Shown: positions 2,529-30,113, counted from the first letter of the stretch. The stretch is 30,114 bases of DNA from Thermoplasmatales archaeon SW_10_69_26 (GCA_003009755.1 PXUB01000014.1:1-30114), one strand, 5' to 3'. The notes: generated from the letters alone by a model not told the origin. Numbers and translations are program-made.

Positions 2529-2612
2529 GGGCAACCGAAGGACAGTCGCTTACATAGGGTTTCCTGCCCGGTCGAGGTCCTCGCGGGTGGCCGAGACCGC
2601 GAGCGCGTCCCC

Positions 2613-2831
2613 CTAGCCTGCGGCGTCCTCGAGCTCCTCCTCGATCTCGGCTTGGAGGTCGGGCGGGAGGAGGTTGGGGATGCCGTCCTCGATCGGGTAG
2701 GCGTGCTCGCACTCCTGGCAGGTGAGCGTGCCGGCGAGCACCTCGCCGTCGTCGGCTTCCTCGTCGACGTCCAGCCTTAGACGGCCCTTGTCTTCCGGGC
2801 AGCGGAGGATGTCCATCAGGTCTTTCTCCAT
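2613..2831 (-). CDS. trm112: Trm112-like methyltransferase activator
   Basis: 72 aa with LMDILRCPEDKG...GTLTCQECEHAYPIEDGIPNLLP, the Trm112p signature. GAGGTG SD overlaps the metK stop. Confidence 0.9.
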   Translation of the reverse strand: MEKDLMDILRCPEDKGRLRLDVDEEADDGEVLAGTLTCQECEHAYPIEDGIPNLLPPDLQAEIEEELEDAAG

Positions 2832-2842
2832 CGTTCAACACC

Positions 2843-4015: not shown

Positions 4016-4044
4016 CTGGGTTCGGCGGGCGGAGGGGGTTGGCG

Positions 4045-4056
4045 CTTAAAGCGGTT
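4045..4056 (-). promoter_or_regulatory. Archaeal BRE/TATA-like promoter of metK
   Basis: Minus strand AACCGC-TTTAAG about 30 nt upstream of ATG 4015, in otherwise GC-rich DNA. Confidence 0.55.
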
Positions 4057-4301
4057 GGGGATGCGGCCACGGAGGCCGACGGGGAGCCGAGACGCTGTCG
4101 GGCTCTGGCGCTCGTCTCACCCCGGACGTGGCCGGCCACCGAGGGACGCCGCTGTCTCGCGCCACCGCATCCGATGGGGAACGAACCCTGGTGCGTTTGG
4201 TCCTGCTGATCGTGAAGGCCTCCAACGGGGAGCGCGACTCGGTCCCCTCAGCTGGCGGGGTCGCCGAGCAGAGGGTCGAGCCGAGGCCGCCGACGAGGCG
4301 C

Positions 4302-5468: not shown

Positions 5469-5542
5469 GGACGGGGATTCCCCTCCTGTGTAAAAGCCCT
5501 CCGGGCAGGGCTTCGGATGGAGATCGGCTTCGGAGGGTGGAC

Positions 5543-5584
5543 GAGAGGAGAAAGAGAGGAGGCCCGGCGACCGGACGGCCGGGC
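5543..5584 (-). terminator. Hairpin plus pyrimidine-tract terminator
   Basis: GCCCGGC/GCCGGGC stem (5562-5568 / 5578-5584), then CTCCTCTCTTTCTCCTCTC on the minus strand, just after the stop at 5602. Confidence 0.5.
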
Positions 5585-5601
5585 TGGCGACCCGTCGGGG
5601 G

Positions 5602-5976
5602 TCAGTGGGAGTCAAAGGTGAGCGTGTAGTCCACGCTCCCGTCGACGACGAGGCCGGCGACCTGGGCGGCGGGCTGGCAGCCGTTGTTCTGCGTGAACGA
5701 GACCTGGGCCGTCGTCGTTTGGCCTGTGGCCACGTCCACGCCGGCGCCGGGAGAGCCCTCGACCGAGAGGCTCACGACGTCGGTCGGCGCGGGGTCCTCG
5801 AGCGTGAGGGTGACTGTCCACGTCGTGATGACCTGGGGGCAGGCGGGGCCACCAGGGGCGTAGGTGTCGATCTCGCCGGTCGAGACCGAGCCGCTCTCGG
5901 TGGTGTCGGCGGCGGCTGTCGGAGCCATCGCGAACGAGGCGACGAGCAGAACGGTCAGCGCGATTTTCCCTCGCAT
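5602..5976 (-). CDS. Small secreted beta-rich hypothetical protein
   Basis: Signal peptide MRGKIALTVLLVASFAMAPTAAA, two Cys, ends DYTLTF. TTTAGG box at 6001-6006. Confidence 0.7.
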   Translation of the reverse strand: MRGKIALTVLLVASFAMAPTAAADTTESGSVSTGEIDTYAPGGPACPQVITTWTVTLTLEDPAPTDVVSLSVEGSPGAGVDVATGQTTTAQVSFTQNNGCQPAAQVAGLVVDGSVDYTLTFDSH

Positions 5977-6243
5977 GGGGCGGCGAGTATCGCTCGGATT
6001 CCTAAACCTTGGGCTTCGTCGGCCAGGTTGCGCCTCGGCAGCGCGACGGTCAGCGTCCTCGGCCGACGACCAGCCGCTGGGACCGGCCGCAGGCCGACGA
6101 GCACCGCGACCGGGTGCCGACCGCGCGGGAGACCTACCACGAGGTCCCCTGAGGCCTACAGGCAGGCGCGCTGGATCACCACGTCCGGCGACGGCTCGGC
6201 GCCTGCTCGGGGACCGCGGCCACCGGGGTCTGGGTCCGTCGGC

Positions 6244-12111: not shown

Positions 12112-12585
12112 TCAGGACCCCCCTGAGGGCTGGGGGTTCGTCAACGTTTCCTCGACGCCTTCGAGGGCCTCCTCCACGTGGGACCAGTGGAACGGCGAGC
12201 GGAACCGCTTGCGGACGGTGCCCTCCTCGTCGACGACGAAGGTGACACGCTGGGTCCCCAGCAAGCCGTCGACGCCGTAGGCCTCGCGCACCTCCCCGTC
12301 GACGTCGGCCAGCAGATCGAAGCCGAGGCCGTGCTCCTCGCGGAACCGCTCGTGTTCCTCGGGGGGATCGGTGCTGACGCCGACGACGTTGACGCCGTGG
12401 GCCTCGAAGGCCGCCAGGTTGTCCTGGAAATCGCAGACCTCCTTCGTGCACACGAGCGTGAAATCGCCCGGATAGAAGAACAGCACGAGCGGGCGGTCGA
12501 GCAGCTCGGCCAGCTCGACGGTGTCGCCGTCGTGGTTGGGCAGCGCGAACTCGGGCGCGCGGTCACCCACGTCGATGTCGGCCAT
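12112..12585 (-). CDS. bcp: Peroxiredoxin, BCP/PrxQ type
   Basis: VGDRAPEFAL, FYPGDFTLVCTKEVCDF (peroxidatic and resolving Cys, CxxxxC), GVSTD, RVTFVVD. Real start is ATG 12585; the 742-aa ORF extension is antisense to the next gene. Confidence 0.9.
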   Translation of the reverse strand: MADIDVGDRAPEFALPNHDGDTVELAELLDRPLVLFFYPGDFTLVCTKEVCDFQDNLAAFEAHGVNVVGVSTDPPEEHERFREEHGLGFDLLADVDGEVREAYGVDGLLGTQRVTFVVDEEGTVRKRFRSPFHWSHVEEALEGVEETLTNPQPSGGS

Positions 12586-12693
12586 CACCGGACGAAACGA
12601 CCGGCATCGGGAAAATCCTAGCCTGGGCACTGTCGGCGGCCGGACCCGACGTGCCCCGCAACGTTGAAAGGCTCGGGGCCAGCCTGTCCATCG

Positions 12694-14259
12694 ATGACCG
12701 AGCTTCGCTCCTCGCTGCTCGCCCTCGTTCTGGTGACGACGGGATGGGCAGGCTGCATCGGGACCGCGGACGACTCCCTGGACGCCAACCGGGCCGGCCT
12801 GGACGAGGCGAGCTCGATCCAGGTCGTCGACGAGGACGAGGAGGCGATCGCGTTCGCCCAGGTCACCCAGTACGCGGCCGGCGAGGTGCTCACCGTCACC
12901 TCCGCGAACGCGAGCGGCGCCCTGGCGGCGGAGGAGTTGACCCCCTCGGCCGAGCGCGTGCTCGTCACCGCCGACGGCTACGAGGACTGGGAGGGCTCGG
13001 TCGAGGACCTCGGCGACCAGATCAGGCTGGCGAACGCCACCGAGCGCGTCCAGCCCGAGCCCAGCGCCGACCGCGACCGGCTGTCGCTGCTGGCCCCGCT
13101 GCAGCTGGGCTCGGCCTACATGGCCGACCGGCCCGAGACCTGCAACGTGAACAACTGCGGGGCCAGCGAGCCCGTGATCGAGGTCGCCGGCGATGGCACC
13201 ATCTACGTCTCGGGCGTGTGCTGCGTGGGCGGCTCGCCGCCGATCTGGTTCAGCCAGGACGACGGGCGCAGCTTCCAGCTGCTCCGCGGGGACGTGCTCC
13301 GCGACAGCTTCGGGATCGAGGGCGACTTCGCCATCGACGAGACCGGCAACATGTACTTCTCGGACATCAGCGTCGCCAGCGGCTACCTCTCCTCCTGGGA
13401 CGAAGACCAAGAGCACCGCTCGACGATCCCGGCCGGTCCCTTCGTGCCGCCCGTCGACCGCCCGTGGATCGAGGCGGGTCCCGAGGATACCGCTTGGTTC
13501 CTCTACAACCAGGTCACCAGCACGCTGCTGTACAAGTCGACCGACGGCGGCATCACCTGGACGCTGCAGCAGGAGTTCCCCGGCGCGCTCGGGTACTTCG
13601 AGTCCGGGCCCGGCCTCGAGGAGCTGTGGGTCGCGGCCGACGACCACCTGTGGCACAGCGAGGACGGCGGCGAGACGTTCGAGCAGCTCGAGGAGATCCC
13701 CCGACCCAGCGACGAGGGCCAGCGGTTCATGTCCTACGAGACGCTCGGCGTCGACGAAGCCGGCAACGTCTGGGCCGTCTACGACTGGTCCAACGGCACC
13801 TCGGACGCCTACCACATCTACGCCGTCAAGCGCAGCCCCGACGGCGAGTGGTCCCAGCCCGTCCGAGTCAGCCCCGACCAGGGCACGCACCACCTGCCGT
13901 GGGCTGACGCCAGCGCCGAGGGAAGCCTGGCCCTTGCCTGGTATGGCACCCTCGACGACGAGGCCGGCCCGAACGAGGTGGACGAGGACGCCCAGTGGGA
14001 GCTGTTCACCGCGGCCACGATCGACGGGACCGAGGACGATCCGGGCTTCCAGCTGGCCCAGCCGGAGCCCGCGCTCGTGCACGAGGGCCCGATGAACCGC
14101 AAGCTGTTGGACTTCCTGCAGGTCGAGATCGGGCCCGAGGGCGCCGTCCACATCGCCTACGCCCAGGACCGCGAGGGCCAACAGGACGAGCGCACCGAGT
14201 ACGTCCGCTCGACGACGGGCTTGGACCTGGCGCGCGAGGACTACCTGAACGGGCCCTGA
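12694..14259 (+). CDS. Lipoprotein with BNR/Asp-box (sialidase-like) beta-propeller
   Basis: Lipobox WAGC. Asp-boxes SQDDGRSF, STDGGITW, SEDGGETF. TTGAAA box at 12664-12669. Confidence 0.8.
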   Translation: MTELRSSLLALVLVTTGWAGCIGTADDSLDANRAGLDEASSIQVVDEDEEAIAFAQVTQYAAGEVLTVTSANASGALAAEELTPSAERVLVTADGYEDWEGSVEDLGDQIRLANATERVQPEPSADRDRLSLLAPLQLGSAYMADRPETCNVNNCGASEPVIEVAGDGTIYVSGVCCVGGSPPIWFSQDDGRSFQLLRGDVLRDSFGIEGDFAIDETGNMYFSDISVASGYLSSWDEDQEHRSTIPAGPFVPPVDRPWIEAGPEDTAWFLYNQVTSTLLYKSTDGGITWTLQQEFPGALGYFESGPGLEELWVAADDHLWHSEDGGETFEQLEEIPRPSDEGQRFMSYETLGVDEAGNVWAVYDWSNGTSDAYHIYAVKRSPDGEWSQPVRVSPDQGTHHLPWADASAEGSLALAWYGTLDDEAGPNEVDEDAQWELFTAATIDGTEDDPGFQLAQPEPALVHEGPMNRKLLDFLQVEIGPEGAVHIAYAQDREGQQDERTEYVRSTTGLDLAREDYLNGP

Positions 14260-14269
14260 CGCCGGCAAC

Positions 14270-14310
14270 GAGCGGGCCTCACCCCGACGGACCGCGTCGG
14301 CGGCCCGCTC
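14270..14310. terminator. Intergenic GC-rich hairpin
   Basis: GAGCGGGCC/GGCCCGCTC outer stem and CCGACG/CGTCGG inner stem, just after the stop at 14259. Confidence 0.4.
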
Positions 14311-14443
14311 ACGACCGGGGTCTCGCAAGCACCGCTGCAAGAGCCCCTAGGATCGCCCCCACGACCGCCAGCCCCGCGTCCACCGCACCCGACCCTCGGT
14401 GCCCCAACAACGCTTATCAGGGCCCCGGAGTCCTCCCAACGCG

Positions 14444-17474: not shown

Positions 17475-17605
17475 GGTCCTTGCTAGGACCACCCAGACGT
17501 TGAACGTTTGGGGGTGGTATCAGCCGGCGGGCCGACCGCGCTGTTGCCACTCAAGCAGACATAGCCCTGCACGAAGACCCAACCGCGCCCAAGATCAGCG
17601 TCGTT

Positions 17606-17686
17606 GGGGGCTGGGCCGCTCCCGAGGGGGGTTTCTTTGTTGCCGAGGATTTTTCTTTGTCCCCCCTCGGGAGGCGTCAAGCCCCC
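17606..17686. repeat. Long inverted repeat with a directly repeated loop
   Basis: Perfect 13-bp stem CTCCCGAGGGGGG (17619-17631) / CCCCCCTCGGGAG (17661-17673), extended by GGGGGCT/AGCCCCC. Loop has TTTCTTTGT twice. Confidence 0.7.
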
Positions 17687-17704
17687 GTCGAAAGAAAAAT
17701 GCTC

Positions 17705-19289
17705 CTAGCAGGCGAAGCAGCCGATCTGCTCGGGTTGCTCGTCGACCGTGGTGTCCATCGGGGCCAGCGGCATGTCGACGTGGCCGCCGTGGTCGGTGTA
17801 CGCGATGCCGTGCATCTGGCCGGGCGCGGGCTGGGCGTGGCGGGGGTCGTCGCCGAACACGACGATCCACCGGTGGCCGGGTTCGAGCACGTCGTCCTGC
17901 GGGTAGAGCGGGATCTCGATCTCGAGGTGCTCGTTCTGGGGCACGGGCTGGGCGTCGGTGAGGCCCTCGCGGTAGATGCCGCGGACGACGCCCTCGTTGA
18001 CCCATTCGCGTTCGCCGTCGGGGGTCTCCTCGTAGAGGACGGCCGTGAAGACGGGGTCGGGGTTGCCTTGGACCTCGGCTTCGACGGTCACGGTGGGTTG
18101 GCCGGCGTAGCGGTAGGGGGCTTGGCCTGGAAGGTCGACGGGACCCTCGACTTGCACGGTGCCGGTGTCGGAGTAGGAGGCGACGAGCTCGTTGATGTGG
18201 CCCTCGACGTGCTCGGCGTCCTTGGGGGGCCAGTCGTCGCTGGCGCGCCACACCCCGTCGTCGCCTTCGACCTCGAAGCCCCAGTCGACGCCGGTGGCCT
18301 TGCCCTTGCCGGTGTGTTCCAGCCAGCGGAGCATCGTCTGGTTCCAGTCGGCCCGCATCGGGTACACGTGCCCGGTCCCGTCCTCGGTGTCTTGGTGCAG
18401 CCAGCCCTTCACCCGGATCTGCTCGGGCAGCTCGTCGAGCCAGGGCAGGATGTGGTCGGGTTTCACGTTCCAGTCCTGGAGACCGTGCACGAAGAAGACC
18501 GAGCCGTTCCAGTCGCTGTCGGCGACGTAGCGGTTCCAGTCCCGCTCGACCCAGTAGTCGGTCTTCATGCCGTGGGCGCCGGAGCCGACACCGTTGGCCT
18601 GCATCTCGGGCAGCTCGGGGCAGGCGGCGTCCGACGCCGTACTCGTGCACGCCCTGGCCGTAGTAGTACGTGTTGAAGATCGGGCCGTGGGTGTAGGCGA
18701 CACCCTGGCGGTACGTGTAGCGGTACATGTCCGTGATGCCGGACACGTGGAACAGGCCGACCAGGCCCTCGGGCGGGTCCTTGGCGATCAGCCCGTTCTG
18801 CGGCGTGGAGTCGTAGCTTTTCCCGCCGGCGATCACGTTCCCGTTGGACCACTCGGCGTTGGCGAAGCGCTCGACGGTCTCCTTGAGGTCGGCCACCTCG
18901 CGGTCGCTGCCGATCTCGAAGCAACCCTCCGAGTGGCCGGTGCCGCGGATCGCGGAGAGGACGACGGCGTAGCCGCGCGGCACGTACTCCTCGATCATGT
19001 ACTGGGCGAAGGCGTCGCCGCGTTCCTCAGCCGCGTCACCCCAGTAGGGGCTGAAGTTGACGAACACGGGCACGGACTCGTTCGTGTCGGGGCGGTAGAT
19101 CGCGTTGTGAATCGTGGTCCCATCCGACAACTCGACCCGGACCTCGGTGACCTCCTGCACGTCGTAGCGGGGCTCGGCGAGGTCGCTCGAGGCGCTGTCG
19201 GGATCGATCTCCTGGCCTTCGTCGTCGCCGAGGCAACCGGCGAGCCCGGCGGCGAGCACGAGGGCAGCGAGGACCACGAGCCGTCGCAT
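17705..19289 (-). pseudogene. CocE/NonD (S15-like) alpha/beta-hydrolase lipoprotein, frameshifted near 18632
   Basis: N-half: MRRLVV...LAGC, SPYW, YVPRGYAVV...RGTGHSEG, WSNGNV..GKSYD. C-half in another frame: YWVERD, VHGLQDWNVKP, WLEH, LYPQDDVLEPGH. Confidence 0.8.
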
Positions 19290-19345
19290 CGTGACACGAG
19301 CGGCCGCGCAGCATGTTAACGGTTGTGGGCGCCCGGTTGGGCGGA

Positions 19346-20179
19346 TCAAACCGCTGGCGAAAGCAGGACGACGGCGCCCAGCGCCCAGCAGTACCAGCAG
19401 AAGTGCGTGAACCCGCGGCGTTCGACGATGCGGACGAGCAGCCACAGCGCCCCGTAGCCGACGAGCGCGGCGACGGTCACGCCGGCGGCGTAGGCCGGCC
19501 AGGCGCCGCGAGCGGCCGACAGCGATCCCGGATCGGCTTGGAGGACGGTGGCACCGGCGATGGCGGGGATGGACAGCAGGAACGAGAAGCGGACGGCGTG
19601 CTCGCGCTCGACGTTGCGTTGGAGAGCCATCCCGATCGTGGCCCCCGAGCGGGAGACGCCGGGCACGATGGCCAACCCCTGGAACAGACCGACGAGGAGG
19701 GCATCCCAGCCGCCCGGGCTGTCGGGGTCGGGCTCGGGGGCATAGCGAGCCAGGAACAGCCAGGCGCCGGTGGCCAGCAGCGCGATGCCGACGACGGTCG
19801 TGCTCTCGAAGAAGCCGACGAGCCGGTCCTCGAAGGTGAACCCGATGGCGACCGTGGGGATCGTGCCGACGACGACGAGCGCGGCCAGGCGCCGGTGGGG
19901 GTCCTCCCACCAGACCTCGCGCCAGCCGCCGCTCTCGCGGTGGGCGCGGGGGGCGCGGGCGAGCGCGAGGAGGACCTCGCGCACGGTGTCCCGATAGAAC
20001 ACGAGGATGACGGCGAGGGTCCCGAGGTGGAGCAGCGCGTCGAAGAAGACGTCGACCTCGACGCCGAGGTACTGCTGGGCGAGCACGAGATGACCGCTGC
20101 TGGAGACGGGCAGCCACTCCGTGAGGCCTTGGATGAGGCCCAACAGGATGGCCTCGAGCAACGAGGGGCCCGACGACAC
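19346..20179 (-). CDS. uppP: Undecaprenyl-diphosphate phosphatase (BacA family)
   Basis: LGLIQGLTEWLPVSSSGHL, LHLGT, QGLAIVPGVSRSGAT, FSFLLSIP. Multiple TM segments. Confidence 0.93.
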   Translation of the reverse strand: MSSGPSLLEAILLGLIQGLTEWLPVSSSGHLVLAQQYLGVEVDVFFDALLHLGTLAVILVFYRDTVREVLLALARAPRAHRESGGWREVWWEDPHRRLAALVVVGTIPTVAIGFTFEDRLVGFFESTTVVGIALLATGAWLFLARYAPEPDPDSPGGWDALLVGLFQGLAIVPGVSRSGATIGMALQRNVEREHAVRFSFLLSIPAIAGATVLQADPGSLSAARGAWPAYAAGVTVAALVGYGALWLLVRIVERRGFTHFCWYCWALGAVVLLSPAV

Positions 20180-20255
20180 GGGCCTGTCGAGGCCCGGCCA
20201 CGGCTTGAAGGCTTCGAAGCTGGGCCCTCCCTCGCCCCCGCCGCGGGCAGGCCCG

Positions 20256-22787
20256 TCAGCTGGGCCGCGTCGTCGGTTCGCGCACGATCGTGCACCGCCC
20301 TTCGCCGTCGACCTGTTCGCCGTCTGGAGTGAAGTAGGTGCACAGGTCGGTGGCGACGTTGGCCGTGTGGGCGATGGCTTCGGCTTCGCAGGTCTGCCAG
20401 CCGTCGGCGTCTTGGGGGATCGTGCACGCGGCGTCGGCGCCTGTGCACTTGACGGCGGCCCCGGACCCGGGGGGCCCGAACCACTCGACCTTGTAGCGCC
20501 CCTCGCGGCACTCGATCGGCACGTTCTGCCGGGCGCCGCCGATCCACGAGCACTCGATGTCCTCCTCGGGGACGGCGTCTGCGTAATTGTCGCGGATCTC
20601 CTGGCAGGCTTCGAACGAGCCGGGGCGGTACTCGGTGGTGCTCTCGCCGAGGAAGATCCGGCTCGGCGTGGATTCGGCTTCCGAGTACACCACGTATTCC
20701 CCCTCGGGGTGGGGCGTGTCCGGGAAGGTGCAGTAGTCGCTGGTCCGCACGCCCACCTCGAGCTCGTCGCCCGGCTCGAACGTGACCTCCCGAGGCTCGT
20801 GGACGGGATCGTCAGCGCTTACCTGCTTGTCACCGAACACGACGGGGATCTCCTTCATCCAGGGCCCGGGACCGGCCATCGGTTCCGCATCGGTCTCGCC
20901 GACGCCGATCACCTCGCGTTCGCCCGTGTCGGCGTCGATCCGGGCGATCTCGGCCTGGAAGTTCACCGAGCGGCAGAACACGGTGTGCTGGGTGGACTGG
21001 TCACCGTCGCCGATCCAGATCTCGGCGTAGGCGGCCGAGATGGTCGTCTCCTGCTGGATCTCGGTCCGATGGACGATGGACTCCCCCCAGGTCCTGGCCC
21101 GGACGCGCGGCAGGTCTCCCTCCGGCGCCTCGCGGGAGAGCTCGTCCTCGCCTTCGAGGTGGAACGCCTGGTCCTCGTCGGGGCTGACGACGGCGTCCTC
21201 GTGCAGGTAGTCGTCGGGGATCTCCGCGAGGCTCGGCTCGGTGTCGGGCAGGCCGTCGAAGGCGATCGCGGCCTCGAGAGCGTCGACGGCGTCGACGAGG
21301 CCGTGGCCGACCTCGTAGTTGGCGCCGTCCCACGGGTTCGTGGCGTCGGCTTGCAGGAACGGAGCCGGGCAGTGGCCGCCGTCGGCGAGCTCGGGGCCCT
21401 CGTGGGCGGTCGACTCGAGCACGTGCTCGACCTCGCCCGGCGTCAGCTCGGGGTTGGCTTGCAGCATGAGCGCGGCCACGCCCGCGATGTGGGCGGCGCC
21501 GATCGAGGTGCCGAACGCGTCGGTGTACCCGTAGCGGGCGGACGTGGGGTCCTGACCGCTGCCGGCCGGCAGCCGCGGCTGCTGCTGGACGGACAACGCG
21601 TTCGGGCTCGTGATCGCGTTGCTCGGTCCAGCGATGTCGGGCCACGTCGAGGGGTCGAAGGCGTTGCCTTGGCTGGAGATCTTCGAGGCGCAGCTGTCGC
21701 GGTCGCCGGGGCCCTCGTCGTCGTAGCCGGCGACGCCCAGGACGCCGGGCGTGGGCAGGGTGGCCTCGGCGGACGTGGCCGGGACGAGCGCTTCGCCGTG
21801 CCCGTTGCCGACGGGAAACACGACGACGTGACCGTCGTCGGCGAGGGCCTGGGCGAGCTGGAGGTGCGCCTGGCGCTCGTCGCCGCACTCGCGCTCGTCG
21901 CAGGTCCAGCCGTTGAGCACGACGTCGATCGCCGGGTCGAGCTGGTCCCCGTTCTCGAGGATCCAGTCGAAGGCGATCGCGGCCTCGAGCGTGGTGGCGG
22001 GCTTCTCGGCGGAGAACGTGCCGGCGTAGCCGCGCTGGTTGCGGGGTTCGACGGCGAACCCGTACAGCGAGGCGCCGGGGGCGGCGCCGCGGAGGTCGGC
22101 GTCGCCGGCCGTGCCGCCGCCGGTGCCGGCGGCGACGCCGGCGATGCGCGTGCCGTGGCCTTCGCCGAGCTCGCTGTAGGAGCCGACGTCGACGACGGCG
22201 GCCGGCGTGACGACGTAGTTGGCCGGCACCTTGCCCGGGGCGTCGAAGGTGGGGTGGGTGGCGTCGAGCCCGGAGTCGACGACGGCGATGCCGACGCCGT
22301 CACCGTCGATCGGGGAGCCGTCGTCGGCGGTGAAGGTGGCCGTGGGCTCGTCGACGAACGGCGAGGGGTCGAAGCTGGGATCGAACACCTCGCGGGCGCG
22401 GGAGGTGATCGTGGCCTCGTCGAGGTGGTACTCGAGGCGTTTGTCGGCGTCCTCGACGAACGTGATGCCGGGTTGCTCGGCCAGCGTGGCCAGGCTGCCC
22501 TCGCGGGCGAGGGCGTAGGCGGCGTCGAGGTGGGCGAACCGGTAGCGGGGCTCGATCCCGTCCAGCGCCGTGGCCCGATCGAGCGCCTCGTCGTCGCGGG
22601 CGTGCACGATGACGTTGGCGGGATCGCTCGCGGCGAGCCCGTCCTCGAGCACGTCGGCCGATCCCGATCCCGCAGCCGGGATCGACGGTCCATCCGGGGC
22701 GTCCACGGTGCCGGCGAGGGCTTGGCCGGCGGCGGGAACGGCGGTCACGAGCGCTAGCACGACGACGGCGAGACGGGGCACCTGCAT
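20256..22787 (-). CDS. Secreted subtilisin-like S8 peptidase with long Cys-containing C-terminal extension
   Basis: Signal peptide, propeptide and triad motifs IAVVDSG, GHGTRIAG and GTSIGAAHIAGVAALMLQANP. Start is ATG 22787; the rest of the 1289-aa ORF is antisense to the phosphatase. Confidence 0.88.
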   Translation of the reverse strand: MQVPRLAVVVLALVTAVPAAGQALAGTVDAPDGPSIPAAGSGSADVLEDGLAASDPANVIVHARDDEALDRATALDGIEPRYRFAHLDAAYALAREGSLATLAEQPGITFVEDADKRLEYHLDEATITSRAREVFDPSFDPSPFVDEPTATFTADDGSPIDGDGVGIAVVDSGLDATHPTFDAPGKVPANYVVTPAAVVDVGSYSELGEGHGTRIAGVAAGTGGGTAGDADLRGAAPGASLYGFAVEPRNQRGYAGTFSAEKPATTLEAAIAFDWILENGDQLDPAIDVVLNGWTCDERECGDERQAHLQLAQALADDGHVVVFPVGNGHGEALVPATSAEATLPTPGVLGVAGYDDEGPGDRDSCASKISSQGNAFDPSTWPDIAGPSNAITSPNALSVQQQPRLPAGSGQDPTSARYGYTDAFGTSIGAAHIAGVAALMLQANPELTPGEVEHVLESTAHEGPELADGGHCPAPFLQADATNPWDGANYEVGHGLVDAVDALEAAIAFDGLPDTEPSLAEIPDDYLHEDAVVSPDEDQAFHLEGEDELSREAPEGDLPRVRARTWGESIVHRTEIQQETTISAAYAEIWIGDGDQSTQHTVFCRSVNFQAEIARIDADTGEREVIGVGETDAEPMAGPGPWMKEIPVVFGDKQVSADDPVHEPREVTFEPGDELEVGVRTSDYCTFPDTPHPEGEYVVYSEAESTPSRIFLGESTTEYRPGSFEACQEIRDNYADAVPEEDIECSWIGGARQNVPIECREGRYKVEWFGPPGSGAAVKCTGADAACTIPQDADGWQTCEAEAIAHTANVATDLCTYFTPDGEQVDGEGRCTIVREPTTRPS

Positions 22788-22895
22788 CGACGAAGCCTCC
22801 CACGGTGTCCAGCAGCATCCGGTGCCAAAAGCCTTCGGCGCGGAGCGGCGACCCCCGGCACGCAAGGTTTTTCCAGCCAGTTGGCCCTGGGTGGC

Positions 22896-24278
22896 ATGGG
22901 AGGTTCTCGCATCAGAGGGGCTGACCGTTCGCTGCTCGCGACTAGCAACCTGTTGACCGCCGTGGCCGCCGTCCTCGTCGTCGGCGGCGGTGCCTTGATC
23001 GCCGGGATGGCCGAGGACGACACCGGCTCCGAGGCCGAGGTCCAAAGCGTCGATCCAATGCCGCGGGGCGTGCACCTGAGCTGGGTGGACGACCCGCAGA
23101 CGACGATGACCGCCACCTGGTTCACCGACGGGACAGATCCGGGCACGGTGGTGCAGTGGGCTGCCACCTGCGGCGACCTGTCCGACGAGGCCACCCGATC
23201 GTCGACCAACGGCACGGCCTCGACGTTGACCCGCAAGCCCGACGTCCACGTCCACGAGGCGACGATGACCGGGTTCTCGCCCGGTGAGTCGTTCGCCTAC
23301 CGCGTCGGCAGCTTCGAGGGCGGCTTCTCGCCGTGCTACGAGACGTCGACGGCGCCGGACGAGGGTCCGGTCGACATCGCCCTGTACGGGGACCAGGGCC
23401 TGGGCGAGAGCGCCGAGGCCGTCCACGACCGCGTCAAGGCCAACGATCCGGACATGGTGCTGATCGCCGGCGACCTCGCCTACGGCGAGAACGATCCGCA
23501 GGTTTGGGACGACTGGTTCGCGATGAACGAGGACATCTTCGCCGAAACCCCGGTGATGAGCTCGCCGGGGAACCACGAGACCTACGCGGACGCGAGCCCT
23601 CCCACGGCCTCCTACGAGGAGCGGCTGGCACAGCCGGGAGAAGAGCTGTACTACAGCTTCGATTTCGTGAACGCCCACTTCCTCGTCCTCATGTCCGAGA
23701 CGCCCGACGCGACCGGGCGCGGCTACTTCCAGGACATGGTCGAGTTCGCCGAGCAGGACCTGTCGGAGGCCTACGAGGCCAAGAAGGCCGGCGAGATCGA
23801 CCACATCTTCGTGATCCAACACCACCCGCTGTACAGCAACACGCAGCGCGCCGGTCGCTGGGTCGACGCCGAGATGGCCAGCTGGGAGGAGCAGCTGTTC
23901 CACCGCTAGGACGTGAGCATGCTGCTCGTCGGCCACAACCACAACTACGAGCGCACGTATCCGATGGCTTACCAGACGCCCACCTCGCTCGAGCAGGAGC
24001 ACTACGAGGATCCAGAGGGCTGGATCGAGCTGATCAGCGGAGGCGGTGGCCAGGGCTTGTACTCGTTCAAGCACCCCGACGACTTCCTGCCGTACTCGGC
24101 CTCGCACGAGCACGCCCACCACCACACGAACCTCGAGCTCGACGGCGACACGGTCACCGTCCGGGCCGAGCGGGCGCTCTTCCAGCCGGGCGAGATCTTC
24201 GACCAGTTCACCCTCGTCGAGTCCGAGGATCCGGTCGCGAAGACCGCGACGGAGCCGTCGACGCAGGTCGCACGCTGA
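22896..24278 (+). pseudogene. Purple acid phosphatase-like metallophosphoesterase (FN3-like plus catalytic domain), interrupted by an in-frame TAG at 23907-23909
   Basis: Motifs GDQG, GDLAY, GNHE and HHP before the TAG; GHNHNYER and SGGGG after it, in the same frame. N-terminal hydrophobic anchor. Confidence 0.85.
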
Positions 24279-25049: not shown

Positions 25050-25430
25050 TTAAACCTCGTTGGGGGGGACGCATATAAGCAGGGGCGCAGAGGACAGCAG
25101 AGGGGACCGGGTGAGGATGGTGGGAGGAGGAGAGCAGCGACGTTGCGGGAGGGCGGGGTCGAGCGTGCCCAGGAAGACACGCCAGCCGATCCCCACCGCA
25201 ATGAACGCCGCCTCCAGGCCCTCCCGGACCAGGCCGACCCCGTCGTCTGTGACGGTGACGTCCTGCAGCGTGACGGGGCCCGCCCCGCTCCTCTCGATCG
25301 TCGCCGGGGAGGCCAGGCCTCTCGGTTCCAAGCTCGACCGGTGCCTCGTCTCCGCGCTCGGGGCGGCCGGTGCCCTCTGACGCGTCCAGTCCCATGCAGC
25401 CAGCCAGCGGACGACGACGAGGAGCACCAC
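25050..25430 (-). CDS. Possible small membrane protein or gene remnant
   Basis: Hydrophobic N-terminus and VTLQDVTVTDDG...AFIAVGIGW segment. The rest has atypical composition. Confidence 0.25.
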   Translation of the reverse strand: MVLLVVVRWLAAWDWTRQRAPAAPSAETRHRSSLEPRGLASPATIERSGAGPVTLQDVTVTDDGVGLVREGLEAAFIAVGIGWRVFLGTLDPALPQRRCSPPPTILTRSPLLSSAPLLICVPPNEV

Positions 25431-25514
25431 GGCCCGGATCCAGGTCGTCCTACCGGTTCCACGGACCTCGCCCCGGATCGAGCCCGATCGGCCCCGGTCA
25501 CGGTTCGTCCTCGA

Positions 25515-26162
25515 TCAGCTCGACGGGCCCGCCCGCTGGGCCTCGCCGGTGTCGGCGTCGACCTTCATCTGGACGTTCTCGTCGCTCGTCTTCGCGTTCA
25601 GCAGCCACGACTTGTCGCCACCGCCCTGCGCGAGCAGGTAGCCGACCTTGACGTCCTCGCTCTCCAGGGCGGAGGCGAACTCGTCGTCGGCGTCGACGGC
25701 CGCCTGCACGGCGTCGGCGCTCGACACCGACCAGTCCTCGACGGGCGCGTCCATGAAGAACGTGTCCTGCTGGCGCTCTTCGAGGTGGGTCTCCCCGTCC
25801 ACGTTCATGTAGACTGTGGCCAGGTTGCCCTCGCCGTCCTCGAACGTGTACGTCCACTGGGGCGACAGGCCGTCGCCGACGTTGTCATCAGCCTGGAAGT
25901 CGAAAGCCTCGCTGGACCACTCCTCGGCGCTGCCCTCGGTGGTCTCCGTGATCGAGGTTCCGATGAACTCGGCGTCGCTGGACCACTCGGCGGCCCTCGA
26001 TTCGGCGTTCGAGAGACGATCCTGAGCCGTCATCGCGTCACCGTCGACCCCCCCGCCTCCTCCTCCGCCCCCGGCGCAGCCCGCCAGCGGGGCGGCCAGC
26101 AGGAGGACGGTGGCCAACAGATGCACGTTGCCGTTCGCCGACCCGCCCTCGGAGCCGATCAT
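25515..26162 (-). CDS. Lipoprotein with tandem PepSY-like repeats, paralog of 1470-2528
   Basis: LLATVLLLAAPLAGC lipobox, poly-Gly tether, GDGLSPQWTY, DWSVSSADAV, KVDADTGE. Start is ATG 26162 or GTG 26126. Confidence 0.75.
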   Translation of the reverse strand: MIGSEGGSANGNVHLLATVLLLAAPLAGCAGGGGGGGGVDGDAMTAQDRLSNAESRAAEWSSDAEFIGTSITETTEGSAEEWSSEAFDFQADDNVGDGLSPQWTYTFEDGEGNLATVYMNVDGETHLEERQQDTFFMDAPVEDWSVSSADAVQAAVDADDEFASALESEDVKVGYLLAQGGGDKSWLLNAKTSDENVQMKVDADTGEAQRAGPSS

Positions 26163-26314
26163 CGAGGGCTCCCCCCGGTGTCGGTCGGTCGATCGAACCG
26201 CGCCAGCCCGCCGGCCGTCTGCTCGATGCTTGATGTCGGTGGGTTCTCGTCCGTTCGTTGACCGCTCATCGGTGTCACGTGGTGGACGGATGGACGTCGA
26301 GGGGGACCATGGTT

Positions 26315-26332
26315 TGCAGTCGGACGACTGCA
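26315..26332. promoter_or_regulatory. Palindromic operator candidate, copy 1
   Basis: TGCAGTCG-GA-CGACTGCA; the same arms occur at 27157-27174. Confidence 0.6.
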
Positions 26333-26371
26333 GGGGATCGAAGAGGTCGGAGGACGGTGACCCGTCCCGCC

Positions 26372-27094
26372 TTACTCCGGCACGAACGTCAACAGCGAAC
26401 GCCCGACGCCGATCGCGTCGCCGGGTTGTAGGACCCGCTTCTCGTCCTCGGGGAGGCGCTGCCAGTTGATCCACGTCCCGTTCTTGCTCTGCGGGAGGTC
26501 GCGGATCGCGAATCCGTCCTCCCGCGGTTGGACGAAGCTGTTCTGCGTGCTCACGTAGGGATCGTAGTCCAGGCAGATCGGGGCGTCCTCGCTACGACCG
26601 ATCGCCCAGCCACCCTCCTGGCGACTGGCCTCGGTCAACGGGAAAGCCTTCCCTTCGTAGACGCCGTGCGTGAGCACCAGGCGGGGACCCTCGGCCTCGT
26701 CGGGCGAGGCCATCGGGTCCACCGTCCCCGTGGCCTCGGGATCGACGCCGTCCCCGGCGTACATCGTGGACAACTCGCGCAGGTCCTCGACCACCGCGTA
26801 CAGCTTGGAGGCGTTCACCTGGTAGCGGCGCGCCCCCGCGTCCTCCGGCTGCTCCTCACGGACGAAGCCGCAGGCGACGAGCTTGTCCACGTGCTGTTGG
26901 ATCGTCTGGCGGGCCAGGGGACGATCGGGGCTGCCCTCCCCCGTCTGCTTGTGCGGGGTGATCTCCAGCTCGCTGACCTCTTGTGGCATCCTCAGGTGGG
27001 TGAGAAGCTCGAGGCGGACCGGGTAGGCGAGCGCTTCGAGGAACTCCGCGAGAGCCACGTAGTTCACCGGCGGCTGGGAGGGGTCCGAGCGCAC
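26372..27094 (-). CDS. ArsR-type winged-HTH regulator fused to a C-terminal FHA domain
   Basis: N-term LEALAYPVRLELL...LARQTIQQHVDKLVACGFV (wHTH). C-term WAIGRS...DPYVSTQN...IRDLPQSKNGTWIN...LQPGDAIGVG (FHA). Start is GTG 27094 or ATG 27121. Confidence 0.85.
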   Translation of the reverse strand: MRSDPSQPPVNYVALAEFLEALAYPVRLELLTHLRMPQEVSELEITPHKQTGEGSPDRPLARQTIQQHVDKLVACGFVREEQPEDAGARRYQVNASKLYAVVEDLRELSTMYAGDGVDPEATGTVDPMASPDEAEGPRLVLTHGVYEGKAFPLTEASRQEGGWAIGRSEDAPICLDYDPYVSTQNSFVQPREDGFAIRDLPQSKNGTWINWQRLPEDEKRVLQPGDAIGVGRSLLTFVPE

Positions 27095-27154
27095 GTCTCC
27101 ACGATGCGTCCCCGCCCTCATGAAACCCTGAACGGGACAGCGTCCGTTTGTGTC

Positions 27155-27176
27155 TCTGCAGTCGACCGACTGCAGA
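27155..27176. promoter_or_regulatory. Palindromic operator candidate, copy 2 (divergent promoter)
   Basis: Perfect TCTGCAGTCG-AC-CGACTGCAGA between the regulator and kinase genes. Confidence 0.6.
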
Positions 27177-27300
27177 CTCGCGGGACCCGCGCCAGCTCGA
27201 GAAACCCGCGCCATACAGCGAGCGGGCTCCCGATCGGCTCGAACGGGCGTGGGAGGGTTCAAGTAACCCTCTCGATTGAAAATGTTCAGGAGGAACGGGC

Positions 27301-29304
27301 TTGCTCTCGGCGCTCGGAGCTCAGCAGTGGCTCTCGTTGGGATCAGCCGCCTTCATCGCCTACACGGCTTGGTGGCTGTACCGTTCCCAGCCCGAGAACA
27401 CCCTCAAGCGCCTCATCGCCGTCTACCTCGTCGCCGTCGTCGCGCAAAGCCTCGGAGGGGTCGGAAGGCTCCTCGAGGGCGACGCCAACCCCACTCGCTG
27501 GAACAACGTCGGGCACGCCGTCTGGACCGGCAGCTTCTTCTGGATCGCGTTGGCCACGGTCGCGATCTTCTACGTGTACCCTCGACGGCCCGAGCGTGGC
27601 TCGCTGGACTTCTGGTTCTTCGCCGGTCTGGCGGGGATCCTCGTCGTCGCCACCGTCCTGTGGTTCCTCGCACCGGACGTCTACTACCTCGACCAGGGAT
27701 CCGGAACGAGCGTCCTCTGGTGGCTGTTCGTCCGTGTCCCCGGGCGGACGCTTCTCGTCCTCCTCGCTCTCACCGCAGCCGTCTGGCGAGCCCGTGAGAT
27801 GGATGAGGCCGACCGACGGGCCGCGCTCATCCTGCTGCCGTCGATCGTGCCGTGGCTGTTCGTTGTCGGCGGGATCCGGCTGAGCCAGGCCGCCTACCAG
27901 GTGGCCGGCGCTCGCGACGTCCTCCTCCAGGTCATCCAGTACTTCGACGCGAGGCCCGGGAACATCGGTCACCTGCTCCCATCGCTTTGGCTCACCCAGC
28001 ACGCGCTGGTCCTCGCGTTGACCGCCTACCTCGTCTGGCGACACCGTTCCTACATGGCCCTCGGCATGGTCGTCTCCGGGGTCCTGATCACCACGGTTCC
28101 CCCGCTCGCGTTCATCAGTCTCTACGCGTTCTTCTTCCTCTGGACGCCGATCGGCATCCTCTATGCGATCGGACGACACCGGGCTCTCGGTGGGGACGAT
28201 CGCGATCGAACCGCGTGGAACTGGACGGCGGGGACCGTGGCCGCGTTCGTGTTCGTGTTGATCTTCGCTGCCGGGTTGGCCCGCCGCCCTGAGCAGGCGA
28301 CGGTGCCGATCGCGCTCGTCGTCTCCGGCCTGTGCAGCCTCGCGGCCGGCGTTGGGGTCCACCCGAGCGGCTGGTCCCTCCACGAGTCCTCGGCCCCGGT
28401 CCAACAGGGCCCCTTCGAAGCCGGGGCCGCGAACAGCGAGAACGGCCGGATGGGCGATCGCTTCCGGGTGCTCGAGCACCTCGGTAGCGGCGGGTCGGGC
28501 AGCGTGCACGAGGTCCACGACACCGTGCTCGACCGACGGGTTGCCATCAAAGTGCTGGAGGACGCCTCCAGCGACGAGGCGTGGGAACGGTTGCAGACGG
28601 AAGCCCGGCGAGTGGCCGACGTTCGCCATCCCCGCCTGGTCGACGTCCTCGATCTGCTCCGGATCGACGGGGATCCCCACTTGGTCATGGAGTACGCGGC
28701 CGGCGGCTCCCTGGCGGATCGGATCAGCGATGGCTCGCTCGGGGACGACGACTTCCACCAGGTCGCCCGGCAGGCACTCGACGCTCTCGAAGTGATCCAC
28801 AGCGGGGACTTGCTTCACCGTGATCTGAAGCCCTCGAACGTTCTCCTGACGGGGAACGGGGACGCCAAGCTCGCCGACTTCGGGATCGCCCGGTGCAAGG
28901 GGGACCAGACGGCGCTCGAGTGGCACGGCCCCGGGTCGCCGAAGGGGACGGTCGCCTACATGAGTCCCGAGCAAGCCAAGGGCCAGCCCGTCGACGAGCG
29001 CAGCGACCTCTACAGCCTGGCCGCGACCCTCTACGAGGCCTACACGGGCGAGGCCTACGTGCAGGTCGACCCCGCCGAGTCGCTCGTCGAGGTCCAGATG
29101 CGCGTCGCCGGTCTGGTGCCCTTCGACGAGGAGATCGAGGCCTCCCAGAGCCTTCAGGAGTGGTTCGCCACGGCGCTGGCGCCGCGGCCCGAGGATCGGT
29201 TCTCCAGCGCCCGCGAGATGCGCCAGGCCCTCGACGAGATCCTCGAAGTGTCCGAGACGCCCCGCTCGCAAGCGGAGAGCGAGGACCCCCCAGGCGCGGG
29301 CTAG
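27301..29304 (+). CDS. Multi-pass membrane sensor fused to a C-terminal Hanks-type Ser/Thr protein kinase
   Basis: About 10-11 hydrophobic helices counted by eye, then LGSGGSGSV, VAIK, HRDLKPSN, DFG, GTVAYMSPEQ and SDLYSL. Confidence 0.92.
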   Translation: MLSALGAQQWLSLGSAAFIAYTAWWLYRSQPENTLKRLIAVYLVAVVAQSLGGVGRLLEGDANPTRWNNVGHAVWTGSFFWIALATVAIFYVYPRRPERGSLDFWFFAGLAGILVVATVLWFLAPDVYYLDQGSGTSVLWWLFVRVPGRTLLVLLALTAAVWRAREMDEADRRAALILLPSIVPWLFVVGGIRLSQAAYQVAGARDVLLQVIQYFDARPGNIGHLLPSLWLTQHALVLALTAYLVWRHRSYMALGMVVSGVLITTVPPLAFISLYAFFFLWTPIGILYAIGRHRALGGDDRDRTAWNWTAGTVAAFVFVLIFAAGLARRPEQATVPIALVVSGLCSLAAGVGVHPSGWSLHESSAPVQQGPFEAGAANSENGRMGDRFRVLEHLGSGGSGSVHEVHDTVLDRRVAIKVLEDASSDEAWERLQTEARRVADVRHPRLVDVLDLLRIDGDPHLVMEYAAGGSLADRISDGSLGDDDFHQVARQALDALEVIHSGDLLHRDLKPSNVLLTGNGDAKLADFGIARCKGDQTALEWHGPGSPKGTVAYMSPEQAKGQPVDERSDLYSLAATLYEAYTGEAYVQVDPAESLVEVQMRVAGLVPFDEEIEASQSLQEWFATALAPRPEDRFSSAREMRQALDEILEVSETPRSQAESEDPPGAG

Positions 29305-29441
29305 CCGCCGCGAGGACCGCCACGGGTACACCCAGGCCGGGCCTGGGAGCACTCCCAGCGCCCTCCGTCGTCACGTCGACGCTGGAGACCGCGTGTCGGG
29401 CGACACGTGAACCAGCCGTCCTTCGGCGGCGCCCGCGGAGA

Positions 29442-30113
29442 TCACGAGTCCGTGAAGGCGGCGTCGTCGCCAAACACCGTTCCGTCGACGACGACGCCCG
29501 GAACGATGGCACGGTCGTCGCCCTCGGAGATCGTGGTGCCCTCGCCGGACGCGATCTCGATAGCGTGGAGGGCTCCCCCTGCGGAAGCGTACACCTGGGC
29601 TTCCGTGACGATCGGGGCACCGTAGGCGGACGAGCCTACGTCGTAGCGCCACACCTCTTCGCCCGTCTCGCCGTCGAGCGCGTAGACGTGGGTGTCGTGG
29701 GGGCCCTCGTAGTCGCTGGTGGGGCCGCCGGCCTTCTCGACCACCCCGGAGCCGACGTAAACGTGGTCCTCGTCCACCGCCGGCGTGTGGACGTCGTCCT
29801 CGGCCTCGAAGGTCCAAGACTCCTCCCCGGACTCGAGGTCGAAGGCGTAGAGGCCATCGTCCCCGAGGGTGACGTAGACGTGACCGTGGGCGACGACGGG
29901 CCGACTGGGGCTCTCGTCCATGCCGTAGGGGAACTCGTGCGTCCAGGACTCCTCGCCGGACTCGAGGTCCACGGCGGAGATCGCGTAGTCGGGGCTCTTG
30001 CGAACGGCGGCGACCACGGTCCCGTCCGCGGCGGCGACGGAGACGCGATCCTCCGTCGTGTAGTTCCAGGACACCTCGCCGGTCCCGGCGTCGCGCGCGA
30101 CCACGGTCGAGTC
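29442..30113 (-). CDS. PQQ-like (BamB-type) beta-propeller repeat protein, 5'-truncated by the window edge
   Basis: Repeats ARDAGTGEVSW, AVDLESGEESW, AFDLESGEESW and ALDGETGEEVW. Frame open to the window end. Confidence 0.85.
   Translation of the reverse strand, partial: DSTVVARDAGTGEVSWNYTTEDRVSVAAADGTVVAAVRKSPDYAISAVDLESGEESWTHEFPYGMDESPSRPVVAHGHVYVTLGDDGLYAFDLESGEESWTFEAEDDVHTPAVDEDHVYVGSGVVEKAGGPTSDYEGPHDTHVYALDGETGEEVWRYDVGSSAYGAPIVTEAQVYASAGGALHAIEIASGEGTTISEGDDRAIVPGVVVDGTVFGDDAAFTDS

Follow-up and report, generated by a model that had tools for sequence, protein, structure and literature searches.

Can an archaeon connect a membrane sensor to a transcription factor through the phosphorylation of threonine, with a dedicated kinase for each regulator? 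The question is raised by a 30,114-nucleotide stretch of DNA from Thermoplasmatales archaeon SW_10_69_26 (GCA_003009755.1 PXUB01000014.1:1-30114), termed here the window, which is contig C12 of a 2.8-Mb genome that is 95% complete and has a G+C content of about 70%. In this window, the gene for a membrane-bound Hanks-type Ser/Thr kinase lies head to head with the gene for a soluble protein that joins a winged helix-turn-helix (wHTH) to an FHA domain, and a gene for a lipobox protein follows the latter. A first-pass annotation had placed the three genes at 25515-29304, where they are indeed found, and had proposed that kinase and regulator work in the manner of a two-component system. Adjacency, co-divergence, conserved residues and the lack of a conserved third gene support that proposal as far as sequence comparison can. 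The pair exemplifies a two-gene module found across its lineage, and its members are probably a cognate sensor kinase and a transcription factor switched by phosphothreonine (pThr).

Kinase and regulator genes occur as pairs

The starts of the kinase and regulator genes are 179 bp apart, and the head-to-head placement described in the first-pass annotation is correct. The pair is not a one-off, being one of five such pairs in the genome: the five FHA domains and five strong Pkinase domains detected with Pfam form five adjacent pairs, on contigs C1, C12, C13, C19 and C43. The genome encodes seven paralogs of the regulator, five of which adjoin the five strong Hanks kinases. These kinases vary in detail; that on C43 has HGD for HRD, that on C19 has DLG for DFG, and that on C1 is 1302 amino acids (aa) long and carries a large ectodomain.

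The regulator family is present in all 21 species genomes of the class, with 1-15 copies in each and 137 matches in total at E <= 1e-20. A Pkinase match is found within 5 kb of 93 of the 132 near-full-length regulators and within 2.5 kb of 86; conversely, 98 of the 150 kinases listed have a regulator within 5 kb. These counts are lower bounds, since many contigs are short and a further 24 kinase matches fall outside the 150 listed. A second scan, which was a pattern search of species genomes that largely overlap the first 21, returned 79 loci, and in 65 of these a kinase catalytic domain lies within 5 kb on either side. Thirteen of the 14 kinase-less loci have an incomplete flank. Apart from an FHA-only match in Myxococcales, the 79 loci belong to records whose names indicate Thermoplasmatota-type archaea, and homolog names thus fit the Thermoplasmatota setting assumed in the first-pass annotation. 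Given these synteny counts, the pairing is beyond chance, and the co-occurrence with transmembrane (TM) kinases on which the first-pass annotation had wished to see its proposal checked is borne out.

In a 301-genome sample of the phylum, the regulator family occurs in 21/21 genomes of the class and in 7/280 others. Adjacency is kept in four of the seven non-class genomes, and outside the class a kinase is found within 5 kb of 20 of 21 full-length regulators (coordinates compared by eye in both cases; for the latter, five genomes, with G161 and G255 outside the count). Among 1.84 billion representative proteins, a full-length profile of the family recovers 282 clusters at 50% identity (E <= 1e-30); the family is small and lineage-restricted. 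A scan of metagenome contigs for the regulator gave 200 pattern matches, none of which was confirmed. The interval 25400-29400 of the window is present in runs labelled halite metagenome from four studies, and strain variants of it occur at 95-99% identity in a second study. Two DNA runs of another study contain contigs that connect the regulator gene with the kinase gene, and likewise the lipoprotein gene with the regulator gene, at 95-99% identity. The soluble parts of the proteins are acidic (isoelectric point, pI, 4.1-4.8), which fits the 'Halobacteriales' labels on some relatives.

The relative orientation of the two genes is variable. The divergent arrangement, which had been taken as a feature of the system, turns out to be the minority form: the 93 pairs whose members lie at most 5 kb apart comprise 44 convergent, 41 same-strand and 8 divergent ones, and the 65 loci of the pattern scan 36, 22 and 7, respectively. 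When orientation is mapped on a maximum-likelihood tree built from 63 paired regulators, it changes 13 times, against a mean of 23.9 when orientations are shuffled, and none of 200 shuffles gives so low a number; orientation is inherited within regulator clades. Within genomes, the distance between regulators tracks the distance between the catalytic domains of the neighbouring kinases (Spearman 0.71; 63 pairs, 64 comparisons), a value reached by none of 2000 within-genome shuffles of partners (mean 0.42, standard deviation 0.09). Adjacency that persists despite changes of orientation, together with the co-divergence of paralogs, is hard to explain without selection on the pair.

Open reading frames (ORFs) in the 79 loci were also clustered. 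Only two families are widely conserved, that of the regulator in 76 loci and that of the kinase in 67, and the next-largest clusters are opposite-strand shadows of the kinase gene. Because two families alone emerge, no third gene, no phosphatase and no vWA protein is conserved in these loci.

Architecture of the two proteins and candidate DNA sites

The kinase begins at a start residue that is the same in a 97%-identical homolog of 668 aa. Its C-terminal part matches Pfam Pkinase (PF00069) over aa 389-637 with an E-value of 7.6e-44 and 150.5 bits, against a cut-off of 31.7. The translation contains the G-loop GSGGSGSV, VAIK, HRDLKPSN (RD type), DFG and SPE motifs, and the catalytic set of VAIK Lys, alpha-C Glu, HRD Asp, catalytic-loop Asn and DFG Asp is present. 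By its motifs, this is a complete RD-type Hanks kinase for which phosphotransfer is predicted. Comparison with 48 partner kinases (the sample for all kinase residue counts given here) points the same way: all 48 keep VAIK Lys, HxD, catalytic Asn, DFG Asp and PE, and the catalytic residues overall are either invariant or at least 90% conserved. An activation-loop Thr occupies one column in 41 of the 48, within the motif (E/D)-(T/A)-T-hydrophobic-G, and the activation loop of the window kinase carries Thr residues.

The catalytic domain is preceded by a hydrophobic region of 357 aa. A Kyte-Doolittle scan resolves eight separate segments and an AlphaFold model has about 12 helices in residues 4-351, figures between which the roughly 11 TM helices of the first-pass annotation fall. 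The model, which was built from 49 divergent relatives, has a mean predicted local distance difference test (pLDDT) score of 76.5 and a predicted template modelling (pTM) score of 0.78. The domain has no Pfam match at E-values up to 10, HisKA_7TM (PF16927) included, and a Foldseek search of the model against the PDB returns nothing at E <= 0.001. When the model is compared using VIA-align, the best 50 chains are all seven-transmembrane (7TM) receptors, namely G-protein-coupled receptors (GPCRs) and rhodopsins (Z 11.4-13.2; root-mean-square deviation, rmsd, 3.9-5.6 A); the fold is a helical bundle, so it is not assignable at this level. In the ESM Atlas, its look-alikes are membrane regions that precede histidine-kinase or SpoIIE outputs, and the HisKA_7TM feature score is 0.88; both are leads only. 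Homologs are scarce, with a single protein (98% identity) found in a word-indexed protein search and no tblastn match in 99 related loci, and the domain is weakly linked to the N-terminal domains of two partner kinases (phmmer, 1.3e-7 and 2.6e-5). Read cautiously, the membrane domain would be a polytopic sensor module of a type from which histidine kinases, too, receive their input.

Most partner kinases share this general plan. At least six hydrophobic segments precede the catalytic domain in 60 of 76 distinct partner kinases, and 55 of 69 N-terminal regions, including that of the window kinase, fall into one phmmer-linked component. HisKA_7TM matches occur in 5 of 49 scanned partner kinases; they are weak, and one is above the Pfam cut-off. 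A few partner kinases (C1 in the same genome, and those at loci L023 and L050) have instead a PQQ/PKD ectodomain and a single membrane anchor. In most, a helical linker of about 100 aa with the motif EVYRAAL...LR..LG, which no Pfam family matches, lies between membrane domain and kinase; the window kinase is without it. An R..LFD.D motif follows a late helix in the alignment of partner-kinase N-terminal regions. Pfam scans detect no HisKA, HATPase_c or receiver domain in either kinase or regulator.

The ORF of the regulator extends over 26372..27262 on the minus strand. Since the alignment to homologs of 249-250 aa starts with the ATG at 27121, the gene is taken to be 26372-27121. Its closest relatives are 74-96% identical, and homologs carry database labels such as 'FHA domain-containing protein' or 'ArsR family regulator', and nothing beyond these. 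Pfam FHA (PF00498) matches aa 172-240 with an E-value of 1.4e-10 (41.9 bits against a cut-off of 20.7). An AlphaFold2 (AF2) model of the protein has a pLDDT of 85.5, which drops to about 60 in the interdomain linker. The FHA domain of the model matches those of DgcB (Z 18.6; rmsd 1.2 A over 99 aa), GarA (17.3), EmbR (16.6) and ArnA (16.2); the top Foldseek match is the PknB-GarA structure 6i2p, and GarA and OdhI are among the best matches in both sequence and structure. The regulator profile also finds the EmbR FHA domain at E 1.7e-8.

The N-terminal domain of the regulator is clearly ArsR-like by fold in the model, in which residues 18-116 match ArsR protein 6j05_B with Z 11.3 and an rmsd of 2.2 A over 86 of 90 residues; further ArsR-type matches are 2oqg (Z 10.9) and 3f6o (Z 10.6). 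The family profile finds the ArsR-like 2oqg in the PDB at E 4.7e-4, PF12840 is annotated on some homologs, and HTH_20 matches at E 0.046 with 14.1 bits against a cut-off of 27. Since the likeness in sequence is weak, we term the domain ArsR-like and do not file the regulator in the ArsR/SmtB family. The SARP/Trans_reg_C DNA-binding domain and BTAD are absent from Pfam scans at E-values up to 10, in keeping with the contrast to EmbR drawn in the first-pass annotation.

Conservation was assessed in 141 representatives of the regulator family. The pThr-contacting residues of the FHA domain are R176 (139/141), S191 (133/141) and N214 (134/141); the domain retains this Arg, Ser and Asn, and binding of pThr is predicted. 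A further residue, Thr131, lies in the linker. It is Thr in 134 of the 141 representatives, the adjoining columns being variable, and it is invariant in 48/48 aligned homologs; in the regulator's own subfamily, the motif reads (D/E)-A-T-G-T-(L/V). In 83 of the 134, it stands 14 residues ahead of G145, the first conserved FHA residue (A3 alignment). The GarA/OdhI switch is characterized by just such a feature, a single conserved Thr in a flexible segment next to an FHA domain, and by this analogy Thr131 is most likely the candidate phosphosite.

Two palindromes flank the regulator gene. They take the form TGCAGTCG-NN-CGACTGCA, and a search of the whole genome for the core of 16 specified bases, with 0-1 mismatch allowed, gives exactly these two copies in 2.8 Mb. 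The second falls between the regulator and lipoprotein genes, following the stop of the former by about 40 nt and preceding the ATG of the latter by about 150 nt. In strain-variant contigs (95-99% identity), none of the differences listed falls in either palindrome, a further 56 differences being outside that list. Related sites occur in G015, a genome from another family of the class, where a 44%-identical regulator has four of them around it. In degenerate form, the palindrome has 12 distinct matches in 2.9 Mb, four of them inside one 1.9-kb stretch at the regulator, and the sites lie 34-94 nt upstream of two paralogous secreted-protein genes. These two genes (L029, contig C256 of G015, 2112-3005 and 3963-6224) flank the homologous regulator, with the motif before each. 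More widely, 7 of 79 loci have GCAG-N8-CTGC upstream of the regulator at a distance of at most 135 nt; the regulator flanks (51 kb) give nine matches, and the 618 kb outside them give 29. We regard the palindromes as likely DNA sites of the regulator and hence as candidate operators. A regulon beyond the locus was considered and rejected; with up to three mismatches, the core has 26 sites in the genome against 16-24 in shuffles, which is the level of chance. A scan for sigma-70 promoters and intrinsic terminators gave no match, its models being unsuited to archaea. The coordinates of all these features are collected in table 1.

Table 1. Features of the kinase/regulator locus, in window coordinates, and location of the other pairs of the genome (contig coordinates).
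Feature	Position	Strand	Details and basis
Lipobox protein gene	25515..26162	-	215 aa; leader, LAGC lipobox
Palindrome 2, second core copy	26313..26334 (core 26315-26332)		4 mismatches over 22 nt, 0 in 16 specified bases; 38 nt downstream of regulator stop
wHTH-FHA regulator gene	26372..27121	-	249 aa; Pfam, homolog alignment, AF2 model
FHA domain	26375..26692	-	aa 144-249; PF00498, structural matches
Thr131 codon, candidate phospho-acceptor in flexible interdomain linker	26729..26731	-	conservation
ArsR-like winged helix-turn-helix	26774..27070	-	aa 18-116; structural matches
Divergent intergenic region of regulator and kinase genes	27122..27300		179 bp; gene starts
Palindrome 1, candidate operator	27155..27176		perfect inverted repeat (10+10 bp, spacer 2 bp); 33 nt upstream of regulator ATG
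Sensor Ser/Thr kinase gene	27301..29304	+	TTG start, 667 aa; ORF, Pkinase match, start common to homolog
Polytopic membrane domain of kinase, presumed sensor	27301..28371	+	aa 1-357, 10-12 helices; hydrophobicity scan, AF2 model
Hanks-type catalytic domain (RD kinase)	28465..29214	+	Pkinase profile, motifs in translation
Other kinase/regulator pairs of the genome	C13:4177-6965; C19:55485-58388; C43:44730-48102; C1:36065-42083

Predicted mechanism and alternative readings

The proposed mechanism can be divided into sensing, docking and switching. Stimulation of the membrane sensor would cause the C-terminal Hanks domain to autophosphorylate on an activation-loop Thr, and the FHA domain of the soluble wHTH-FHA protein would dock on the resulting pThr. 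The kinase would phosphorylate the regulator, most likely on linker residue Thr131, and pThr131 would be bound by an FHA domain, either its own or that of a dimer partner, as in GarA/OdhI. Such binding would alter the seating of the ArsR-like winged helix on DNA, with the palindromes on either side of the regulator gene as its likely sites. If the palindromes are indeed DNA sites, the pair would control its own divergent promoter and the downstream lipoprotein gene. We hold the cognate pairing to be probable; the phospho-switch at Thr131 in particular is a closer call, and we advance it tentatively, with belief and doubt nearly in balance. A more far-reaching proposal is that such pairs form a distinct class, a 'phosphothreonine two-component system', in which partners are matched one to one, are insulated from other pairs and have multiplied through joint duplication of kinase and regulator genes. 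The Ser/Thr kinase would take its input from a 7TM-receptor-like sensor that histidine kinases also use, and would phosphorylate one conserved linker Thr; this pThr would be read by the regulator's own FHA domain to switch the ArsR-like domain, and the pair would control itself together with neighbouring genes for exported proteins. All of this may be so, and we consider it conceivable while inclining somewhat to doubt.

A number of observations weigh against a cognate pair that switches at Thr131 and acts on the palindromes. In the regulator, the canonical FHA His is replaced by Asn (Asn in 82 and His in 54 of the 141 representatives). The position +3 to Thr131 is variable family-wide (A 30, L 20, V 19, G 19 and R 15 of 134), and the argument from a simple pTxx-hydrophobic FHA motif is therefore weakened. 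The name ArsR-FHA given to the regulator in the first-pass annotation stands for its FHA half (PF00498) and, by fold, for its ArsR half (Z 11.3), and fails for the latter by sequence cut-off, NF033788 (ArsR) scoring 20.3 bits against 55. Pairing is incomplete: two of the seven regulators in the genome, on C25 and C8, have no Hanks kinase nearby, 39 of 132 in the class have no listed kinase within 5 kb, and the closest homolog from a species genome (L033, 52% identity) has full 5-kb flanks and no kinase. The palindrome motif is absent near five of the other six regulators in the genome, the sixth (C43) having a looser GCAG-N8-CTGC match about 340 nt upstream; if the palindromes are operators, specificity differs between subfamilies. 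Instead of an operator, the palindrome could also be a local repeat or form a hairpin in RNA. One RNA-library run has matches, a short contig of 272 nt and another of 215 nt, both within the kinase gene, which are no proof of transcription. Finally, searches of the genome (95% complete) for PP2C, PP2C_2 and SpoIIE phosphatases found none, PPP-type enzymes being outside these searches, and with no PP2C-type phosphatase the reset step is unexplained. The genome does encode 17 receiver domains, so the kinase/FHA module supplements His-Asp signalling and does not replace it.

Three other explanations of the pair have to be weighed against a Thr131-switched transcription factor. The variable +3 position would be expected if the regulator were never phosphorylated and its FHA domain served to tether it to the autophosphorylated kinase at the membrane, or to release it, such that location sets the occupancy of DNA. 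Docking of an FHA domain on kinase pThr is the established mode for FHA/Hanks pairs (PknB-GarA, 6i2p), and the activation-loop Thr on which docking would depend is kept in 41/48 partner kinases. What sequestration leaves unexplained is a single Thr held at a fixed distance before the FHA domain in 134/141 representatives, within a linker that otherwise varies. We judge it unlikely as the whole account, and it is not exclusive of phosphorylation at Thr131. Alternatively, the FHA domain could read pThr on a third protein phosphorylated by the neighbouring kinase, in the way that ArnA reads ArnB in Sulfolobus, an archaeal precedent according to the available excerpts of PMC5007285. The FHA domain of ArnA does match the regulator model (Z 16.2), but the 79 loci hold no conserved third gene family, and Pfam scans detect no vWA or zinc-ribbon domain in either kinase or regulator, which makes a third-protein ligand improbable.

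It may also be asked whether adjacency is of historical interest only, the kinases being pleiotropic like many bacterial Hanks kinases and the wHTH-FHA proteins acting as general readers of pThr. The solitary regulators at L033, C25 and C8 would suit such an arrangement, as would the 52 of 150 listed kinases that have no regulator within 5 kb. Yet pairing has outlasted repeated changes of orientation, and paralogous pairs co-diverge within genomes, so that an accident of history is the most improbable of the explanations considered here. A cognate sensor kinase and pThr-switched regulator is thus the reading with which we compare other systems below.

Neighbouring genes and relation to known systems

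The lipoprotein gene lies within an ORF that spans 25515..26474 on the minus strand, and its start is most likely the ATG at 26162. The product has a hydrophobic leader, a LAGC lipobox and an acidic mature part (pI 4.05); PepSY matches at E 0.002, below cut-off, and the one homolog among 5.8 billion proteins is 65% identical. The first-pass annotation was right that a lipoprotein gene follows the regulator, and a role as a conserved third part of the module is ruled out, with no match in 20 + 79 related loci. Given the palindrome, the gene may be a local target of the pair. Genes for lipobox or exported proteins recur beside regulators in five to six other loci.

Downstream of the kinase gene and convergent with it, a PQQ-like beta-propeller gene (29442-30113, minus strand) runs off the end of the window; a sensing link between its product and the kinase is conceivable. 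On the other side, 22881-24278 on the plus strand encodes a protein similar to purple acid phosphatases and metallophosphatases (PF16656 and PF00149). It is interrupted by an in-frame TAG at 23909-23911, directly before a conserved GHNHNYE, and a pseudogene, a sequencing error or read-through are all possible. An S-adenosylmethionine synthetase of the three-domain MetK type (PF00438/PF02772/PF02773) is encoded in this archaeal genome at 2843-4015 (minus strand); most archaea have a different MAT family. Upstream, ORFs on the minus strand have Pfam matches to an S8 subtilase (ORF extent 20256-24125), an S15 peptidase (17595-20201) and an AhpC/TSA peroxiredoxin (12112-14340). Many long ORFs without a Pfam match in this high-GC window are probably shadows.

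The combination of a Hanks kinase with an FHA-bearing regulator is known already from PknH/EmbR, ArnC/D-ArnA/B, ST1565-ST0829 and PknB/G-GarA/OdhI. PknH carries its kinase domain at the N-terminus, together with a single TM helix and a sensor that lies outside the cell. In Mycobacterium tuberculosis, this membrane Hanks kinase is found beside EmbR, a transcription factor with an N-terminal winged helix and a C-terminal FHA domain, and to that extent the likeness is close. However, EmbR has a SARP/OmpR-type DNA-binding domain and BTAD, whereas the wHTH described here is ArsR-like; the order of the kinase is reversed, with the polytopic membrane domain first and the catalytic domain last; and PknH/EmbR is a single pair, whereas 1-15 regulator paralogs are found per genome here.

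To our knowledge, detailed accounts of archaeal Ser/Thr kinase signalling come almost entirely from the Sulfolobus archaellum network, in which kinases and FHA proteins are not in cognate pairs. The available excerpts of PMC5007285 describe Hanks kinases ArnC and ArnD in Sulfolobus, with ArnA and ArnB, of which the FHA protein acts on promoters; those of PMC10470591 describe the Hanks kinase ST1565 of S. tokodaii and ST0829, likewise an FHA protein acting on promoters. The module resembles both in that, going by those excerpts, an archaeal Hanks kinase phosphorylates or binds an FHA protein, which in the case of ArnA matches the regulator at the Z of 16.2 given above. It differs in that ArnA, as characterized there, has a zinc-ribbon N-terminus and a vWA partner, ArnB, whereas here the N-terminus is a wHTH and there is no conserved third gene. 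Nor do the excerpts describe ArnA as encoded beside its kinases, in contrast to the tight adjacency found here, and the zinc-finger FHA proteins of the Sulfolobales are the only ones that they mention. In the available part of PMC5847659, FHA and threonine go unmentioned, and the preprint 10.1101/2021.02.01.429150 deals with an unrelated subject. No description of the wHTH-FHA/polytopic-kinase architecture was found in the open-access literature, in agreement with the first-pass impression that no archaeal equivalent had been characterized.

GarA and OdhI, with PknB and PknG in actinobacteria, and DgcB in Bdellovibrio, likewise have, besides an FHA domain, a phosphorylatable Thr on a flexible part of the protein that binds back to this domain. 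Their outputs are metabolic enzymes or a GGDEF domain, and not DNA, and their Thr is in the N-terminal tail, whereas Thr131 is in the interdomain linker and its binding to the regulator's own FHA domain is a prediction. The likeness to His-Asp two-component systems lies in a membrane sensor kinase together with its cognate DNA-binding partner, encoded by paired genes that have been duplicated and co-diverge, and extends to HisKA_7TM, a domain known from histidine kinases, in the few partner kinases noted above (5/49, one above cut-off). Unlike those systems, the module has no HisKA, HATPase_c or receiver domain, and phosphorylation is predicted to be on Ser/Thr and read by an FHA domain. On present comparisons, it would work like a two-component system but is not a member of that class. 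Among eukaryotes, FoxK and Fkh1-2 also have a winged helix and an FHA domain in one transcription factor, as described in the excerpts available to us; the winged helix is of another class and the domain order is opposite, so this is analogy only. New here are the ArsR-like DNA-binding domain, a kinase with the polytopic sensor first and the catalytic domain last, the lack of a conserved third partner, the many co-diverging pairs per genome and the conserved linker Thr.

In this halophilic lineage of Thermoplasmatota, a single genome has up to 15 kinase/FHA-regulator pairs, and these evolve in the way that two-component systems do, staying adjacent while they duplicate and diverge together. 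If the proposed mechanism is true, the pairs would amount to a genetically encoded map of which Hanks kinase acts on which transcription factor, something that is usually very hard to obtain, and would come with a testable predicted phosphosite (T131) and predicted operators. The module would then also be an independent, prokaryotic invention of the transcription factor with winged helix and FHA domain that is known from forkhead proteins.

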